A stretch of DNA of 60,447 nt, taken from contig CALRGR010000005.1 of assembly GCA_943357985.1 (NCBI GenBank), positions 1 through 60,447 of the forward strand. The letters run 5' to 3'. Shown piece after piece: positions 3,901 through 32,659 of this stretch (position 1 is the stretch's first letter; the number at the start of each line of letters is the position of its first letter). The translations under genes and the position numbers were made by a program. This stretch comes from Candidatus Levybacteria bacterium GW2011_GWA1_37_16 (lineage in GTDB: Bacteria; Patescibacteriota; Microgenomatia; Levybacterales; UBA12049). Below the pieces are notes generated by a model, which was not told where the DNA came from, searched no databases, and saw only the letters and a program-made list of their open reading frames with translations.

Positions 3901-4872
3901 TTATTTTCTTAGACGGGATTTTAATTTAGCCTTAACTATCAATAACGACGATATAACTATAAGGCTTATAAGTAATATCTGTACCGGAGCTCCAATAAAG
4001 CGGGTGGTTTGGGTCAAGGCTGGGCTATGTTCGTAAAAAGTAAGGATTAATGTGGCTGTATAGGGTCCCAGCAGGAAAGTCTCCGGCCAAGCAGCGGTAA
4101 TAGATCTGGATGTGTTAGCGAGGATATTTGTTTTTTCTAGATCTACCCTGCCTACAGTCTGCCCAAATAGGTTTTTAATAAGAATATATCCTGATGTTGA
4201 TATAAATTGTTCTCCCTGGTTTGAGGTTTTAACCGAAAACTCAATAGGGCCTTTGTCTTTGAAGAATGATGAATTAAATTCGTTTATTTTGACTTGAGGC
4301 TTGGTAATCTGGCCTACGGTAAGAAGTACATTTGTTGCTACTGCAGTAATAATTTGAGATTTGTTCTTCTGAGCAGCATCCGTAGCAGGGGATGATGTGA
4401 ATAATAATGAAAAGTAATAGTCTGATAATGTTTCATCTTGAGTAATGTCTATGCGCAAGCTTAATTCTTTTTGTTGTTTTGGTCCGAGCTCTATAGAAGA
4501 AATTTCTTGATCTTTATCGAATACCTTAATTTTTTGAAATATGAGCGGATCTTTTAGATTAAGTTCACCACTTTTTAAATATCTTACCTGTCCATTCTCA
4601 TTGTCAGATTGAGTGAAGGGCTTAAAGCTAATATTAAAAGTTTCAGTTTGATCTGTTTGATTTTTGATTATAATGGGTGTTTTCAGGCTAACAGGGGCAG
4701 TTGCACGAATTTTGATAATAGGAGGATAAACCCCCAGTGAAAATGCAGATGCGTCTGCTTTCTGTGGAAATACTACCAATACTACCAATATTATCAATAC
4801 CACCAATGCCCCAATTTTAAATTCAAAATTTTTAATTTTTAATGAATTTTTAATGTTTAAATTTTTAGACAT
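3901..4872 (-). CDS. Cell-surface protein of unknown function with N-terminal signal/anchor and C-terminal TM anchor plus basic tail
   Basis: 323-aa ORF. N-terminal hydrophobic segment IGALVVLIILVVLVVF. C-terminus is ...APVQILLISLIVISSLLIVKAKLKSRLRK. The middle is beta-rich with alternating polar/hydrophobic residues. A DUF916/DUF3324-like architecture is only a guess. Confidence 0.55.
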   Translation of the reverse strand: MSKNLNIKNSLKIKNFEFKIGALVVLIILVVLVVFPQKADASAFSLGVYPPIIKIRATAPVSLKTPIIIKNQTDQTETFNISFKPFTQSDNENGQVRYLKSGELNLKDPLIFQKIKVFDKDQEISSIELGPKQQKELSLRIDITQDETLSDYYFSLLFTSSPATDAAQKNKSQIITAVATNVLLTVGQITKPQVKINEFNSSFFKDKGPIEFSVKTSNQGEQFISTSGYILIKNLFGQTVGRVDLEKTNILANTSRSITAAWPETFLLGPYTATLILTFYEHSPALTQTTRFIGAPVQILLISLIVISSLLIVKAKLKSRLRK

Positions 4873-4910
4873 TTTGAATTAAGATTTGATTTTAAATTAG
4901 AAATTAAGAA

Positions 4911-5651
4911 TTAAAAATTCGGAATCGCTATAAATGTTATAGAATTGCTGTAAAACTGCGGTGCTTGGTTTCCTGAGATATTGATTTTATAGCTAATTTG
5001 GGCGCTTGCGGATTGATTTGCTTGTAATATAATCTGTGGTTCGTTTGGCTTTTGGAACTGTCTGTATGAGTTGATATCACTAAATCCTTCTGCGCATGGA
5101 TTTGAAATTGCTTGCCCTGAGCCCGCCGAATGGGCCGAAGGACTTGTCCTGAGCGAAGCCGGAGGATCACATCTATATCCAAATCCATAAGTTAATGGTC
5201 CATTCCATGGTTGAGCGACTGAAGCTGTGCAAATTCCATTATCGCAAGTGGTATCCGGAATAAAGCCTTCTGAAGAATTATGTTTTAGCATATGATCTTC
5301 AAAAGCTTGTACCGAATATCCAAAGGCTGTAGAGGAGGACACCAAAAGATTATTTAGCCTTATTACCGGGTCTGTTGCGGAAAGTTGGCCATAGTCAATA
5401 AAATTCTCCGAAACAGAAAAAGAAAACGGCTGCTCCGAAGAAAAATCTTCAAATCCAACTTGAATACTATAATTTTTTCCGCTAAAAAGGCCGTGAAGTG
5501 TTGATATTGTCTCTTTTGGGACAGGAATGTCATCTTGCGGCTGGGTGACAATACTTCCGTCAATTGTATAATCTTGGGCAAAAGCAAACGGAATAGTGAA
5601 TAGTGAATAGTGAATAGTGAATAGTATGCTAATAATTAAGAGAATCTTCAC
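4911..5651 (-). CDS. Secreted protein of unknown function (signal peptide MKILLIISILFTIHYSLFTIPFAFAQ)
   Basis: 246-aa ORF with a typical signal peptide ending AFA-Q and four Cys in the mature part. It contains the heptamer tract 5591-5625 and the GC-rich element-derived segment PPASLRTSPSAHSAGSGQ (5113-5168). Confidence 0.6.
   Translation of the reverse strand: MKILLIISILFTIHYSLFTIPFAFAQDYTIDGSIVTQPQDDIPVPKETISTLHGLFSGKNYSIQVGFEDFSSEQPFSFSVSENFIDYGQLSATDPVIRLNNLLVSSSTAFGYSVQAFEDHMLKHNSSEGFIPDTTCDNGICTASVAQPWNGPLTYGFGYRCDPPASLRTSPSAHSAGSGQAISNPCAEGFSDINSYRQFQKPNEPQIILQANQSASAQISYKINISGNQAPQFYSNSITFIAIPNF
5591..5625. repeat. Perfect heptanucleotide repeat GAATAGT x5 within the signal-peptide codons of CDS 4911-5651
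   Basis: Read directly: gaatagt x5. On the coding strand this is ACTATTC x5, translated LFTIHYSLFTIP. Confidence 0.95.
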
Positions 5652-5717: not shown

Positions 5718-8303
5718 ATGAAACCGTATAATCCCTCTGAAGTCGAGAAGAAGTGGCAAAATGTTTGGGAGGAAACAAAAATTTACTCTCCCAACCTTGA
5801 TAGTGCAAAAAAACCTTTTTATAACCTCATGATGTTTCCTTATCCGTCTGCTGAAGGAATGCACGTTGGGAATATGTACGCTTTTACTGGCGCAGATATC
5901 TATGGCAGGTTCCAAAGAATGCAGGGGTATGACGTTTTTGAGCCCATTGGACTTGACGGATTTGGAATTCATTCTGAAAATTATGCAATAAAAGTGGGTA
6001 AGCACCCGGCAGAGCAGGCCAAAATTTCGGAAGAAAACTTCTATCGACAGCTCCGCTCTATTGGAAATTCTTATGAATGGACAAGAACTATTGAAACTTA
6101 TAAACCGGAATATTACAAATGGACGCAATGGCTTTTTATACAACTTTTCAAGGCTGGATTGGCATATAAAAAGAAAGCGCCTGTTAATTTCTGTCCTAAG
6201 GATCTAACAGTTTTGGCTGATGAGCAGGTAATTGATGGTAAATGTGAACGTTGCGGTTCTGTAGTTGAAAAAAGAGAGCTTGAGCAATGGTTTTTCAAGA
6301 TAACTGATTATGCCGAGAAATTGCTTAGTAATATCCCAGAGCTAGATTGGTCAGAAAAGGTCAAAGTTGCGCAGAAGAACTGGATTGGAAAAAGCGAGGG
6401 CGCAAGGATTCGTTTTGTCATCCTGAGTGAAGCGAAGGACCTACCTGCCTCGCAGCAAGGCGGGGATTCTTCGGCCATGCTTCAGAATGACAACTCAATT
6501 GAGGTATTTACAACCCGTCCAGATACTTTGTTTGGTGCGACATTTTTAGTTATTTCACCGGAACTTGCAAAAAAGTGGCTTGATGTTGGTTGGAAAGCTC
6601 CTACAGGGGTTGGGAAATATATCGAGGAGGCTCTTGTAAAAAGAACATTGATAGAAGAAAACACAGATAAAACGGGAGTTTTCTCGGGAATTTACGCAAT
6701 AAATCCTGTAAATCAAGAGAAAATCCCGATTTGGGTAGCTAATTATGTTCTTGCTGGTTATGGAACAGGCGCAATTATGGCAGTTCCTGCGCATGACCCG
6801 CGGGATTTTGAGTTTGCAAAAAAGTTTGATCTGCAAGTAAAGACTGTCATCCTGAGTGAAACGAAGGATCTACCTGCCTCGCAGCAAGGCGGGGATTCTT
6901 CGGCCATGTCTCAGAATGACAAAATGATTGAGGTTTATGTCGGAGAAGGGGAAATTATTAATTCAGGTGATTGGAATGGCTGGAAGACGCCTGAAAGTAT
7001 TTCAAAAGTCATAAAATGGTTGGAAAAGAAGGCAATTGGTAAAAGAGAAGTTAATTACCATTTAAGAGACTGGTTGATATCGCGCCAAAGATATTGGGGG
7101 CCTCCAATTCCAATGATTGATTGTCCAAAGTGCGGTTGGCAGCCAGTTGCCGAAGCTGATCTGCCTGTAGTTTTGCCGGAACTTGAGGACTTTAAGCCGG
7201 AAGGGAATGGAAAGTCTCCGCTTGCAAATATAGACACTTTTATAAATACCAAATGTCCTAATTGTGATGGTCCTGCAAAAAGGGAGACAGACGTCTCCGA
7301 CACCTTTTTGGACAGTGCATGGTACTTTTTCCGCTATGCCTGCACTGATATAGAAAGTAGTGCTTTTGATAGGGAAAGGCTAAAAAAATGGTTGCCGGTG
7401 AATATGTATATTGGCGGAGCAGAACACTCAGTGCTACACCTTTTATATTCACGGTTTATAGCAATGGTACTGGCTGATTTGAAATTTACGGATTTTGAAG
7501 AACCTTTCAAGAGATTCTACGCGCACGGACTGATCGTAAAAGATGGTGCCAAGATGAGCAAAAGCCGCGGAAATGTGATTATTCCGGATAAATACATAGC
7601 TAAATTCGGCGCAGATACACTCAGATGCTACCTAATGTTCCTTGGTCCTTTTTCAGCAGGCGGTGACTTTAGGGACACAGGAATTGAAGGAATGAATAGA
7701 TTTCTAAAAAGGGTTTGGAAGCTTTGCTCGGCGGTATTAAGTAGTAAGTATCAAGTATCAAGTACAGAAAATACTAAAGAGCTTGATACGGCAATGAATA
7801 AGACGATTAAAAAAGTGACAGAAGATATAGAAAATCTTAGATATAATACCGCGCTGGCGACCTTGATGGAGTATTATAACGTGCTTTCCGAGTTTTATAC
7901 TAAATACAAAATACTCGATACTAAATACTGCAAAACTTTTGTTTTGCTTCTGGCTCCTTTTGCCCCGCATATGACAGAAGAGCTGTATCAGCAATTGACA
8001 ATTGACAATTTACAATTTACTAATAAAGGCAAGAAAGATAGTCAATCATTTAATTCTATTCATCTTGAATCTTGGCCGAGTTTTGATGAGAAATCATTAG
8101 AAGAGTCTGAAGTAAATATTGCAGTTTCTGTAAATGGTAAGACACGAGACGTGATAAAGATCGAAAAGTCAAAAGTCGAAAGTCAAAAGTTTGTTGAGCA
8201 GTTGGCCAAAGAGAGTGAGAATGTAAAAAAGCACCTGCAAGGAAAGAAGATTTTAAAGACAGTTTACGTGCAGGGAAAAATAATAAATTTTGTTATAGAT
8301 TAA
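5718..8303 (+). CDS. leuS: Leucine--tRNA ligase
   Basis: 861 aa. Class I motifs are present: PYPSAEGMHVGN (HIGH-type) and KMSKSRGN. The editing-domain motif TTRPDT and overall LeuRS collinearity are also present. Confidence 0.97.
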   Translation: MKPYNPSEVEKKWQNVWEETKIYSPNLDSAKKPFYNLMMFPYPSAEGMHVGNMYAFTGADIYGRFQRMQGYDVFEPIGLDGFGIHSENYAIKVGKHPAEQAKISEENFYRQLRSIGNSYEWTRTIETYKPEYYKWTQWLFIQLFKAGLAYKKKAPVNFCPKDLTVLADEQVIDGKCERCGSVVEKRELEQWFFKITDYAEKLLSNIPELDWSEKVKVAQKNWIGKSEGARIRFVILSEAKDLPASQQGGDSSAMLQNDNSIEVFTTRPDTLFGATFLVISPELAKKWLDVGWKAPTGVGKYIEEALVKRTLIEENTDKTGVFSGIYAINPVNQEKIPIWVANYVLAGYGTGAIMAVPAHDPRDFEFAKKFDLQVKTVILSETKDLPASQQGGDSSAMSQNDKMIEVYVGEGEIINSGDWNGWKTPESISKVIKWLEKKAIGKREVNYHLRDWLISRQRYWGPPIPMIDCPKCGWQPVAEADLPVVLPELEDFKPEGNGKSPLANIDTFINTKCPNCDGPAKRETDVSDTFLDSAWYFFRYACTDIESSAFDRERLKKWLPVNMYIGGAEHSVLHLLYSRFIAMVLADLKFTDFEEPFKRFYAHGLIVKDGAKMSKSRGNVIIPDKYIAKFGADTLRCYLMFLGPFSAGGDFRDTGIEGMNRFLKRVWKLCSAVLSSKYQVSSTENTKELDTAMNKTIKKVTEDIENLRYNTALATLMEYYNVLSEFYTKYKILDTKYCKTFVLLLAPFAPHMTEELYQQLTIDNLQFTNKGKKDSQSFNSIHLESWPSFDEKSLEESEVNIAVSVNGKTRDVIKIEKSKVESQKFVEQLAKESENVKKHLQGKKILKTVYVQGKIINFVID
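6417..6491 (+). repeat. 75-bp GC-rich nested-palindromic element inserted in frame in leuS (copy 1; encodes VILSEAKDLPASQQGGDSSAMLQND)
   Basis: Sequence: gtcatcctgagtgaagcgaaggacctacctgcctcgcagcaaggcggggattcttcggccatgcttcagaatgac. The central hairpin is cctgcc...ggcggg. The outer arms gtcatcctgag / cttcagaatgac are imperfectly inverted. Confidence 0.9.
6846..6920 (+). repeat. 75-bp GC-rich nested-palindromic element inserted in frame in leuS (copy 2; encodes VILSETKDLPASQQGGDSSAMSQND)
   Basis: Differs from copy 1 at 4 of 75 positions by my alignment. It lies 429 bp downstream of copy 1 in the same orientation and frame. Confidence 0.9.
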
Positions 8304-19208: not shown

Positions 19209-19302
19209 TTGTCGAAGATCCTGAGTGAGCGAAGTGAGTCGAAGTGTCGGGGCGCTGGCCCGCCTGCCGGCATGTCTGGCGGAGAACCCGTCAAAACTTC
19301 TG

Positions 19303-19374
19303 TCGGGGATGGCAGATTTGAACTGCCGGCCTCACGGTCCCGAACCGTGCGCGCTACCACTGCGCCAATCCCCG
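19303..19374 (-). tRNA. tRNA-Pro (anticodon CGG)
   Basis: The minus strand reads CGGGGAT TG GCGC AGTGGTA GCGC G CACGG TTCGGGA CCGTG AGGCC GGCAG TTCAAAT CTGCC ATCCCCG A. This gives a full cloverleaf with G37. Confidence 0.88.
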
Positions 19375-27232: not shown

Positions 27233-27345
27233 TTACTAATTTCAAATTTCTAACCTGCCTCGCGGCAAGGCGGGTCAAATCTAAATGTTCAAAATTTAAA
27301 ACATTAAAAATTGAATAAAAATTAAGAATTAAAAATTATAAATTA
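27233..27345 (+). repeat. Dispersed AT-rich intergenic repeat, copy A (with 21-bp GC hairpin 27254-27274)
   Basis: Sequence: aatttctaa-cctgcctcgcggcaaggcggg-tcaaatctaaatgtt...acattaaaaattgaataaaaattaagaattaaaaattataaatta. It aligns with copies at 31324-31425 and 32546-32659. Confidence 0.85.
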
Positions 27346-31323: not shown

Positions 31324-31425
31324 AAGTTAAATTTCTAATTTCTAATTTCTAATCAAATCTAAATGTTTTAAATTAAAATATTAAAAATTGAATAAAAATT
31401 AAGAATTAAAAATTGTAAATTACTT
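31324..31425 (+). repeat. Dispersed AT-rich intergenic repeat, copy B (lacks the GC hairpin; contains AATTTCT x3)
   Basis: Aligns with copies A and C on both sides. The junction ttctaa|tcaaat is exactly where A and C carry cctgcctcgcggcaaggcggg. Confidence 0.85.
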
Positions 31426-31666: not shown

Positions 31667-32545
31667 ATGAATAAAATTCGTAAAGCCGTAATACCCGCTG
31701 CCGGATTTGGAACCAGATTTCTTCCTCAAACAAAAGCAATGCCTAAAGAAATGCTTCCGATAGTTGATAAGCCAGTTATTCAATATGTTGTTGAAGAAGT
31801 TGTTGCATCAGGAATTAAAGATATAATTGTTGTAACGGGAGCTAACAAAAGAGCTATTGAGGACCACTTTGATACACCAAATGAAGATCTGGTGCAAAAT
31901 CTTCTTGCAGGGGACAAACAAAAACTTCTTGATGCAATTAGAGACCTTGCAGAAATGGCTAATTTTATTTATGTTCGCCAAAAGGGTGCTTACGGAAACG
32001 GAACGCCGGTACTTTCTGCTGAGCCTGTAATAGAAAATGAACCTTTTGCTGTTATTTGGGGAGATGAGTTTATTTATTCAGAGCCGCCAAGGTTAAAGCA
32101 AATGATTGATGTGCATGAGAAATACGGAGGAGTTGTAATCTCAGGAGTAAAAATTGAAAACAAAGCTGACTTAAGCAGGTATGGAATTGCAGATATTTCG
32201 CCTGTTGAGGGAAATGTCTATAAAATTAATGCAATTGTAGAAAAGCCTAAGCCTGAAGATGCACCTTCAAATCTTGCAACCCATGGTGCTTACATTTTGC
32301 CGCCTGATATATTCCCTGCCCTAAAGAATTTAAAACCCGGAAGGGGTGGGGAAATATGGTTGACCGACGCAATAAATCTACTAAGGGAGCAGGGAGTTCC
32401 AATTTACGCGGTTGAAATTGAAAACGGAAAATACTACGACACGGGGAATAAGATTGAATATATGAAAACAGTTGTAGAACTTGCGTTAAAACATCCGGAA
32501 ATAAATGGCGAATTTAGAGAATTCCTCAAAGGGTTAGAGCTTTAA
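31667..32545 (+). CDS. galU: UTP--glucose-1-phosphate uridylyltransferase
   Basis: KAVIPAAGFGTRFLPQTKAMPKEMLPIVDKPVIQYVVEE and VEKPKPEDAPSNLATHGAYIL. Confidence 0.92.
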   Translation: MNKIRKAVIPAAGFGTRFLPQTKAMPKEMLPIVDKPVIQYVVEEVVASGIKDIIVVTGANKRAIEDHFDTPNEDLVQNLLAGDKQKLLDAIRDLAEMANFIYVRQKGAYGNGTPVLSAEPVIENEPFAVIWGDEFIYSEPPRLKQMIDVHEKYGGVVISGVKIENKADLSRYGIADISPVEGNVYKINAIVEKPKPEDAPSNLATHGAYILPPDIFPALKNLKPGRGGEIWLTDAINLLREQGVPIYAVEIENGKYYDTGNKIEYMKTVVELALKHPEINGEFREFLKGLEL

Positions 32546-32659
32546 TTTCTAATTTCTAACCTGCCTCGCGGCAAGGCGGGTCAAATTCAAATGTTTAAAC
32601 ATTTAGAAATTAAAACATTAAAAATTCATTAAAAATTGAAAATTAAGAATTTTAAATTT
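32546..32659 (+). repeat. Dispersed AT-rich intergenic repeat, copy C (with GC hairpin 32560-32580)
   Basis: Sequence: taatttctaatttctaa-cctgcctcgcggcaaggcggg-tcaaattcaaatgttt...aaaattgaaaattaagaatt. Confidence 0.85.

Follow-up and report, generated by a model that had tools for sequence, protein, structure and literature searches.

In-frame palindromic elements of REP type in the leuS gene of a Levybacteria-like bacterium

The leuS locus and its two insertions

The DNA considered here is a stretch of 60,447 nucleotides from Candidatus Levybacteria bacterium GW2011_GWA1_37_16 (assembly GCA_943357985.1, contig CALRGR010000005.1, positions 1 to 60,447 of the forward strand), hereafter the window, which carries the leuS gene for leucyl-tRNA synthetase (LeuRS) and, within this gene, two GC-rich palindromic elements that are read through in frame (Table 1). 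An initial annotation of this DNA had described the two elements as near-identical in-frame inserts of 75 bp, and this description holds: each comprises exactly 25 codons, and 71 of their 75 positions (94.7%) are identical, three of the four differences altering the amino acid. The predicted peptides are VILSEAKDLPASQQGGDSSAMLQND for copy 1 and VILSETKDLPASQQGGDSSAMSQND for copy 2, and a further example of the peptide predicted for the read-through LeuRS insert is SEAKDLPASQQGGDSSAMLQNDNSIEVFTTR. The LeuRS motifs HVGN (of the HIGH type), KMSKS and TTRPDT are intact in the product, and the named LeuRS sequences nearest to it come from Levybacteria and other Patescibacteria.

The elements stand out from their host gene by composition and by structure. 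Their GC content is 57% (copy 1) and 55% (copy 2), against 39% for the remainder of leuS, and the predicted folds of the sense strand reach -28.8 kcal/mol (z = -2.4) and -34.1 kcal/mol (z = -4.6), respectively. Shuffled versions of the window gave zero matches to the arm of the element and zero to its 21-nt core, both described below. A search of Rfam matched no family at the gathering thresholds, and only chance-level matches at E values up to 10. The identical LeuRS of 861 aa is on record from 4 contigs, which rules out an artefact of assembly.

Table 1. The leuS gene, the parts of its two composite elements, and the related intergenic hairpins of the window
Feature	Positions	Strand	Description or basis
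leuS open reading frame (ORF), host gene, LeuRS of 861 aa	5718-8303	+	Match to T. thermophilus LeuRS 1H3N, E = 1.4e-210
Composite palindromic element, copy 1	6417-6491	+	75 nt, 25 codons, residues 234-258
5′ REP unit of copy 1	6417-6443	+	Tag (T)GTC, hairpin ATCCTGAGT-GAA-GCGAAGGAC, tail CTA
Nested 21-nt hairpin CCTGCCTCGCAGCAAGGCGGG, spacer of the dimer, copy 1	6444-6464	+	Exactly the 21 nt absent from the P0040 dimer
3′ REP unit of copy 1, inverted	6465-6491	+	Reverse complement GTC-ATTCTGAAGC-ATG-GCCGAAGAAT-CC
Composite palindromic element, copy 2	6846-6920	+	75 nt, 25 codons, residues 377-401
5′ REP unit of copy 2	6846-6872	+	GTC-ATCCTGAGT-GAA-ACGAAGGAT-CTA
Nested 21-nt hairpin of copy 2	6873-6893	+	Recurrence of the core and comparison with P0040
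3′ REP unit of copy 2, inverted	6894-6920	+	Hairpin scan and comparison with P0040
Intergenic 21-nt hairpin, loop G instead of A	27254-27274	+	Within an 82-nt AT-rich repeat, 27237-27318
Intergenic 21-nt hairpin, loop G	32560-32580	+	Within a repeat (32543-32624), shortly past the stop codon of ORF 31667-32545

Anatomy of the composite element

Each copy is made of two inverted hairpins of the kind found in repetitive extragenic palindromes (REP), with their tags outward and a separate GC-rich hairpin of 21 nt between the two tails, in agreement with the central hairpin within imperfect inverted arms that had been noticed at the outset. Taking both copies together, the 5′ unit reads (T)GTC + ATCCTGAGT-GAA-RCGAAGGAY + CTA, and the 3′ unit, as its reverse complement, GTC + ATTCTGARRC-ATG-GCCGAAGAAT + CC; the 5′ end of both copies is T-GTC and their 3′ end GAC-A. 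The stem ATCCTGAGY-GAA-RCGAAGGAT has nine positions, starting with A-T and then T-A, and combines seven Watson-Crick or wobble pairs with a tandem G.A; the first pair is A.C in copy 1, and the 5′ unit is better paired in copy 2. The loop has 3 nt (GAA in the 5′ unit, ATG in the 3′ unit; 4 nt in the copy of the relative P0010), and the unpaired tail reads CTA or CCC in the window and C-T or C-N in the wider arm family, the published consensus being CCA.

The two arms of a copy are thus differing small hairpins in inverted orientation and not plain complements of each other. Because the arms are heterologous, a strict scan for complementarity of arm versus arm missed the true copies, and REP dimers were located instead by a scan for single-unit hairpins, which found only two dimers in the 60-kb window, both within leuS. 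A counterpart is the 54-nt dimer of the relative P0040, in which GTCATCCTGAATGAAACGAAGGATCTA directly joins GATTCTTCGGCAGAGCCTCAGAATGAC; the window copies have the same architecture plus exactly 21 nt at this junction.

This anatomy recalls the CGTC-tagged REPs (Di Nocera, De Gregorio & Rocco 2013; PMC3733652), which carry an unpaired tag (CGTC, often TGTC, or also CCTC), a stem of 8-9 bp that starts with A-T and T-A, a loop of 4-5 nt (atypical loops occur in some families), and a short tail of ~3 nt with the consensus CCA. They are mostly found as inverted dimers, with variable spacers of 20-100 bp that may hold stem-loops, and no dedicated transposase or target-site duplication is known for them; the intragenic dimers encode 20-30 aa, and the supplement records CGTC-1 dimers inside the GlyRS-beta and IleRS of E. 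litoralis (PMC3733652). The window elements share with them the tag, the start of the stem, the inverted dimers, the structured spacer, the presence of intragenic dimers in tRNA-synthetase genes, and the compensatory changes of base pairs. They differ in their outward tags, in the few copies found in the window, and in the second, independent hairpin of 21 nt in the spacer, and their host is Levybacteria-like, a part of the candidate phyla radiation (CPR)/Patescibacteria that the published survey did not cover. Apart from the loop and the tandem G.A, the arms are built like CGTC/TGTC-tagged REPs.

The same family of repeats leads to the Rickettsia palindromic elements (RPE), as RPE-6 and RPE-4 of R. 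conorii have been equated with CGTC-1 and CGTC-4 (PMC3733652). With arms that fit the CGTC-REP architecture, the comparison with Rickettsia is well founded and more than an analogy. With the RPEs of Ogata et al. (2000, 2002), as they are summarised in later papers, the likeness lies in palindromic repeats that are in frame in housekeeping genes of a reduced genome and that encode surface peptides compatible with the fold, and the differences in length (~150 bp for RPE-1) and lineage (PMC10969869, PMC3733652); here, moreover, a single protein family has been hit again and again in two of its loops. When the peptides are compared, those of R. conorii CGTC-1 and CGTC-4 read SFLRKQES..DSRFRGND and WIPWSNHGMT (supplement file 4, PMC3733652), and those found here VILSEAKD..DSSA.QND. 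The window elements and RPE-4/RPE-6 are probably members of one superfamily and, judging by these peptides, not of one family. The RPE-like behaviour suggested for the elements in the initial annotation is supported by lineage-specific in-frame inserts, non-coding copies elsewhere, loops predicted to be disordered, and CGTC-REP arms.

Position of the inserts in the enzyme

Compared with the LeuRS of T. thermophilus, the insert at site 1 takes the place of a tight turn, EGKE (residues 237-240), which sits between the strands ILFPV and VRIPVFTTRPDT where the CP1 editing domain begins, and the insert at site 2 lies in the loop at residues 363-375, inside CP1. The expectation that both fall in variable loops of LeuRS is borne out by this structural mapping to CP1 loops and turns; the second site, previously placed at the exit of the editing domain, proves to be inside it. 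In the AlphaFold model of the window enzyme, the mean predicted local distance difference test (pLDDT) score is 81.7, with values below 50 at residues 239-257 and 391-398, and the strands beside the insert (225-236 and 260-265) are confident. According to the alignment and this model, both inserts replace turns or loops of CP1 and are predicted to be disordered, and their location on the protein surface, in a disordered loop, is supported.

The same positions are occupied by other material in Levybacteria-like LeuRS proteins, where whole extra domains are found in both CP1 loops. At site 1, an insert of ~185 aa resembling an alpha/beta-hydrolase (PF12697/PF00561/PF06821) is present in P0005, P0024, P0034, P0036, P0062, P0080, P0085 and P0119; site 2 holds inserts of 100-200 aa, among them NUDIX (PF00293), in P0060, P0072, P0094, P0017/P0058, P0027/P0033/P0065 and P0063/P0077/P0107. 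A second family of GC-rich repeat peptides, TGPVVAPPPS..ARRGSPSASHP and GPAAPHPHPSSSSSLR.., occurs at site 2 in P0045, P0099, P0105, P0111 and P0113, and at site 1 in P0099, P0023 and P0030; the presence of peptides of the TGPVVAPPPS type at the LeuRS loops suggests further families of elements that behave alike. In these recurrently filled CP1 loops, nature offers an experiment in the acquisition of new peptide segments by an ancient enzyme.

Empty sites and relative ages

Alignments of 60 and then 120 Levybacteria-like LeuRS sequences bear out that the inserts are lineage-specific. The sister of the window LeuRS, P0002 (75% identity), has only a diverged element at site 1, VILREAKELDSSPLQDLRAEPQND, its site 2 being empty, and the next relatives, P0003 (72%) and P0004 (71%), show short native loops at both sites and neither insert. 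The DNA of the empty site 2 reads GTC ATT AAG GGT GGG AAT ATT GAG, so that both GTCAT and ATTGAG are native there; a 3′ extension of ~15 bp (attgaggt), at first attributed to the element, is for this reason to be withdrawn, ATTGAG being LeuRS sequence that is present at the empty sites of relatives. Related elements checked at the DNA level have 57 nt in P0010 and 54 nt in P0040, both at site 2, and 72 nt in P0002 at site 1; the leuS gene of P0055, also checked, has a 72-nt element at site 1 and two elsewhere. In all, the LeuRS of this clade presents about eight hot spots of insertion.

Could the 25-residue segments be an ancient, vertically inherited feature of LeuRS instead of mobile DNA? 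Peptides of the form V-I-L...Q-N-D do stand at the same positions in relatives, and the site-1 element and the gene have diverged from P0002 about equally. This reading is nonetheless largely refuted, and we give it hardly any credence, since the elements are scattered over a neighbour-joining ordering in which sister taxa have empty sites, one site holds differing REP subfamilies (VIL..QND, VIA..RND, VILNS..RHD), the nested 21-nt module is present in some elements and absent in others, the window copies are 95% identical to each other, and the same nucleotide palindrome is found in intergenic DNA of many phyla.

The relative ages of the two copies can be approached through P0002. Between the window and this sister, nucleotide identity is 77.7% in the core of leuS and 78.9% in the site-1 elements, and these matching divergences are consistent with a single insertion before the two lineages split. 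The 94.7% identity of the two window copies, together with the loop base of their 21-nt hairpin (A in both leuS copies, G in both intergenic hairpins), suggests recent copying or gene conversion between the sites, and the element at site 2 was probably copied recently from that at site 1 and did not arrive independently.

One specific form of this idea is concerted evolution, where the site-2 composite would have been copied from site 1 by gene conversion or template switching, possibly overwriting an older dimer; it is a variant of the explanation preferred below, from which it differs only in mechanism, and we rate its chances as slightly short of even. The shared loop A agrees with it, as do the closeness of the copies to each other compared with the 79% between the site-1 element and its P0002 ortholog, the presence of only two dimers in 60 kb, and the native GTCAT and ATTGAG microhomologies beside the empty site 2. 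P0010 and P0040 carry hairpin-less dimers at site 2, and homologous arms could therefore have served as anchors for conversion. Yet the three closest relatives lack any element at site 2, which leaves an older resident dimer undocumented in the lineage, and the 6 nt between GAC and ATTGAG are unlike at the two sites; a master copy elsewhere in the genome is also possible, although an exact search of species representatives found none.

Reading frame and survivorship

Each of the six leuS elements checked at the DNA level was translated in all six placements. In five of them a single placement is free of stops, and it is the observed one, GTC ATC ... AAT GAC; the P0010 element alone is open in reverse orientation as well. 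The other two forward frames are stopped in an arm, by the TGA of CCTGAG and by the TGA of GAATGAC. All six leuS elements have lengths that are multiples of 3, as against the distribution of 19/18/15 among REP dimers at large described below. The single open placement and the multiples of 3 imply that survivorship under translation explains the common frame and orientation of the inserts.

The same constraints of frame and length argue against a bypass or splicing of the elements. That they are not translated at all, being removed or skipped (as an intein, an intron or a programmed bypass), or that they are artefacts of assembly, seems to us improbable in the extreme. A GC-rich palindrome in an AT-rich gene recalls the byp hairpins of yeast mitochondria; but the host frame is stop-free through all six elements and the other five placements are stopped in five of them, no features of an intein, an endonuclease or an intron are seen in the 75 nt, Rfam gives no match, and, beside the identical protein on 4 contigs, related inserts appear in independent assemblies.

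The arms across bacteria

The arm is far from exclusive to Levybacteria-like genomes. The pattern GTCATCCTGAGNGAANCGAAGGA matched at least 120 genome contigs from many phyla; among the matches listed are Acidobacteriota, Bacteroidota, Chloroflexota, Verrucomicrobiota, Firmicutes, Gemmatimonadota, Nitrospirota, Rickettsiales and Patescibacteria, as well as isolates of Mucilaginibacter and Hymenobacter. A variant of the 3′ unit, GATTCTTCGGC(N3-4)CCTCAGAATGAC, is as widespread as the arm, with an example in Sedimentibacter saalensis DSM 13558. The arm usually has an inverted partner at 20-70 nt, and solo arms are frequent too; in a set of 122 arms, 52 had such a partner. The resulting elements measure 55-148 nt (median 79), and their centres are variable, often lengthening the stem and differing even inside a single genome. 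The base that precedes GTC is T in 101 of the 122 arms, C in 17, G in 3 and A in 1, and the base that follows GAC is A in 47 of the 52 dimers. Flanking direct repeats of 2-5 nt, as expected from a target-site duplication, accompany 0 of the 52 dimers, whose lengths modulo 3 (19/18/15) show no bias.

The fold of the arm is supported by covariation in a set of 36 partner arms, whose sequence the search pattern had not fixed. Double changes preserve the pairs 5-23, 6-22 (C-G 19, T-A 9, G-C 3), 8-20 (T-A 26, C-G 6) and 11-17 (G-C 28, A-T 6), and the tandem G.A/A.G is kept in 34 and 33 of the 36. Such covariation within the arm indicates that the single hairpin unit is the conserved entity. Within leuS, the nucleotides of the arm are unchanged between LeuRS genes whose proteins are only 56-63% identical.

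Searches for a source of the elements gave little. The exact composite of spacer and 3′ arm had 0 matches in species-representative genomes, and a search for an autonomous parent, as inverted arms 0.3-6 kb apart, returned few pairs, none of them convincing. Phages find no support as the main vector, and carriage by them is negligible: among 2.9 million viral contigs, 32 contain the arm and none the 21-nt hairpin. A coding test of the pan-bacterial arms by the length of stop-free stretches was dropped, as it is unreliable in genomes of high GC content.

The nested 21-nt hairpin

The arms and the 21-nt hairpin are independent modules of many phyla. The hairpin, ACCTGCCTCGCNGCAAGGCGGG, is present in over 120 contigs from metagenomes and over 117 from genomes, the genome matches including many classes of Patescibacteria, Bacteroidota, Ignavibacteria, metagenome-assembled genomes of Gammaproteobacteria and an isolate of Ascidiimonas. 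It stands in AT-rich short tandem repeats, in arrays with a period of 35 nt and in coding regions, and it also forms the loop or spacer of other REPs of the type GTCAT...ATGAC (L147, L158, L178, L232, L237). Tandem arrays of the hairpin at L215 (2600-3000) and L217 (3600-3830) have a 35-nt period and heptamer spacers of the AATTACG type, and a doublet lies at L132 (11718-11768).

Of 125 distinct contexts of the hairpin, 69 fall within stretches of 200 codons or more that lack a stop; by inspection, neither the 21-mer nor its reverse complement has a stop in any of the six frames. In a SecA gene, the hairpin corresponds to an exact gap of 7 residues with respect to the SecA of T. maritima (PDB 3JUX). 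Flanking direct repeats of at least 5 nt were observed in 30 of 120 hairpin contexts, where 3.9 were expected, and in none of the SecA and leuS cases. In the low-GC contigs L155, L157, L177, L191, L223 and L242, the hairpin is in frame as PASRQGG within the segment NYPNPFNP..INYKL-PASRQGG-QITNYVSLKIYD, which resembles a C-terminal sorting domain of type IX secretion.

Two intergenic stretches of the window had been proposed at the outset as related cores. The 21-nt hairpin does recur in both, with one mismatch to the leuS core, but the arms do not. These hairpins belong to an AT-rich repeat of ~80 nt which, apart from the two copies of Table 1, is found at 4850-4912 and 31359-31421, between genes and in either orientation; two of its copies start with the hairpin, and the repeat may be a terminator or promoter module.

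Probable selfish DNA in the gene of an essential enzyme

Taken together, we think it likely that the leuS inserts are selfish palindromic DNA of REP type, tolerated in permissive loops of an essential enzyme. A 75-nt element would have landed in leuS, or been copied within it, and would persist there as 25 harmless residues that are read through, the insert peptides probably being neutral passengers. In the sequence of events that we envisage, site 1 would have received a REP dimer ahead of the split between the window and P0002 lineages, the 21-nt hairpin would then have been inserted into the spacer of this dimer, and site 2 would recently have received a copy of the composite, or have had an older dimer homogenised with it. 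Movement probably takes place via single-stranded hairpin DNA (of the REP/REPIN-like, HUH type), or by recombination or gene conversion.

Known systems offer parallels. In REPINs (REP doublets forming hairpins), as in the elements described here, a single long hairpin is formed by two inverted REPs whose spacer is less conserved; REPINs were reportedly found by Bertels and Rainey in 2011 to be mobilised by transposases named RAYT (REP-associated tyrosine transposase, TnpA-REP). By this analogy, arms that are conserved around a variable centre point to a unit that is mobile by way of single-stranded DNA. REPINs have GTAG tags, are lineage-specific and are accompanied by a single-copy RAYT (Y1 HUH) gene flanked by REPs, whereas the arms here are identical across phyla; the tag being TGTC and not GTAG, REPINs of the GTAG type are excluded. 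Bacterial MITEs (miniature transposable elements with inverted repeats), such as the QMITE of Coxiella and ERIC, are likewise small, non-autonomous and bounded by inverted repeats, and occasionally extend or interrupt an ORF in frame (PMC5896051, PMC10969869). They are characterised by terminal inverted repeats, target-site duplications and a conserved interior, and in the elements considered here the interior is variable or a separate module and the duplications are lacking in the 52 dimers. Literature searches returned nothing relevant on the sequences of the arm, the hairpin or the peptides, nor on such in-frame palindromic elements in CPR bacteria; this fits the earlier remark that the insertions had not been described for this lineage, even if the class of phenomenon is already known.

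Several facts weigh against the explanation by selfish DNA in permissive loops. The conservation of the arm base for base across phyla is not explained by a model that is purely selfish and restricted to a lineage. REP hairpins lie almost solely in leuS also on the contigs of relatives (~65 kb), and this concentration is unlike a high-copy REP family and could reflect targeting or selection instead of neutral survival. Neither site is a pure insertion, a few native codons being missing relative to P0003. The 3-nt loop and the two G.A pairs depart from the 4-5-nt loops and 8-9-bp stems of CGTC-REPs. No transposase or other mobilising enzyme was identified, RAYT not having been sought among the ORFs of the window, and the peptides of the inserts are known as predicted translations.

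One rival explanation is that the inserts are kept for a function, either in the movement of the CP1 editing domain or its contact with tRNA, or as a hairpin in the mRNA (for ribosome pausing at domain borders, or as a site of regulation or of RNase III action). REP dimers, further GC-rich elements and even whole domains fill one and the same pair of loops again and again; leuS is where the REP hairpins cluster within the ~125 kb of Levybacteria-like DNA examined; the predicted hairpins are strong (-29 to -34 kcal/mol); and the arms keep their nucleotides in LeuRS genes that have diverged so far in protein. Such a role appears to us unlikely, because the closest relatives work without inserts, the peptides vary widely among lineages and are predicted to be disordered, three of the four differences between the copies change the residue, and the same modules are found in unrelated proteins and intergenic DNA. 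Permissive loops and survivorship would yield the same recurrence.

A more unusual proposal, which we offer as a tentative one that is less probable than not, is that the arm and the 21-nt hairpin are spread or regenerated by an unrecognised process and decorate loops of essential proteins in CPR genomes, the CP1 loops being true targets. The process may be free of any transposase, or may be a universal host function that acts on single-stranded hairpins, and the LeuRS loops may be targeted through their native GTCAT-like motifs and not merely be permissive. If this were true, the 21-nt hairpin, of exactly 7 codons, would be among the smallest mobile insertions known.

Under the preferred explanation by selfish DNA, the presence of selfish palindromes within essential genes, on record for Rickettsia and a few Proteobacteria, would now extend to a Levybacteria-like CPR bacterium, with a very small genome that might be expected to purge selfish repeats. 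A puzzle is posed by a 25-nt arm and a 21-nt hairpin that are conserved to the base over more than 10 phyla, with no mobilising enzyme known. In practice, such modules yield spurious peptide “families” and length variation in the catalogues of metagenomic proteins, and annotation should recognise them.

Other REP-like stretches in the neighbourhood

Upstream of leuS, a hypothetical protein encoded on the minus strand (ORF 4911-5651) contains a GC-rich island at 5110-5165, GATCCTCCGGCTTCGCTCAGGAC AAGTCCTTCGGCCCATTCGGCGGGCTCAGGGCAAGC, which resembles a degenerate REP arm and is read in frame as DPPASLRTSPSAHSAGSGQA. Farther away, positions 19218-19290 hold a sequence like a REP arm, GATCCTGAGTGAGCGAAGTGAGTCGAAG, followed by a GC-rich hairpin, CCGCCTGCCGGCATGTCTGGCGG, that adjoins a tRNA gene (19303-19374). 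Finally, the 5′ end of the same hypothetical ORF shows, on the minus strand, a perfect tandem duplication at 5591-5618 (GAATAGTGAATAGT x2).

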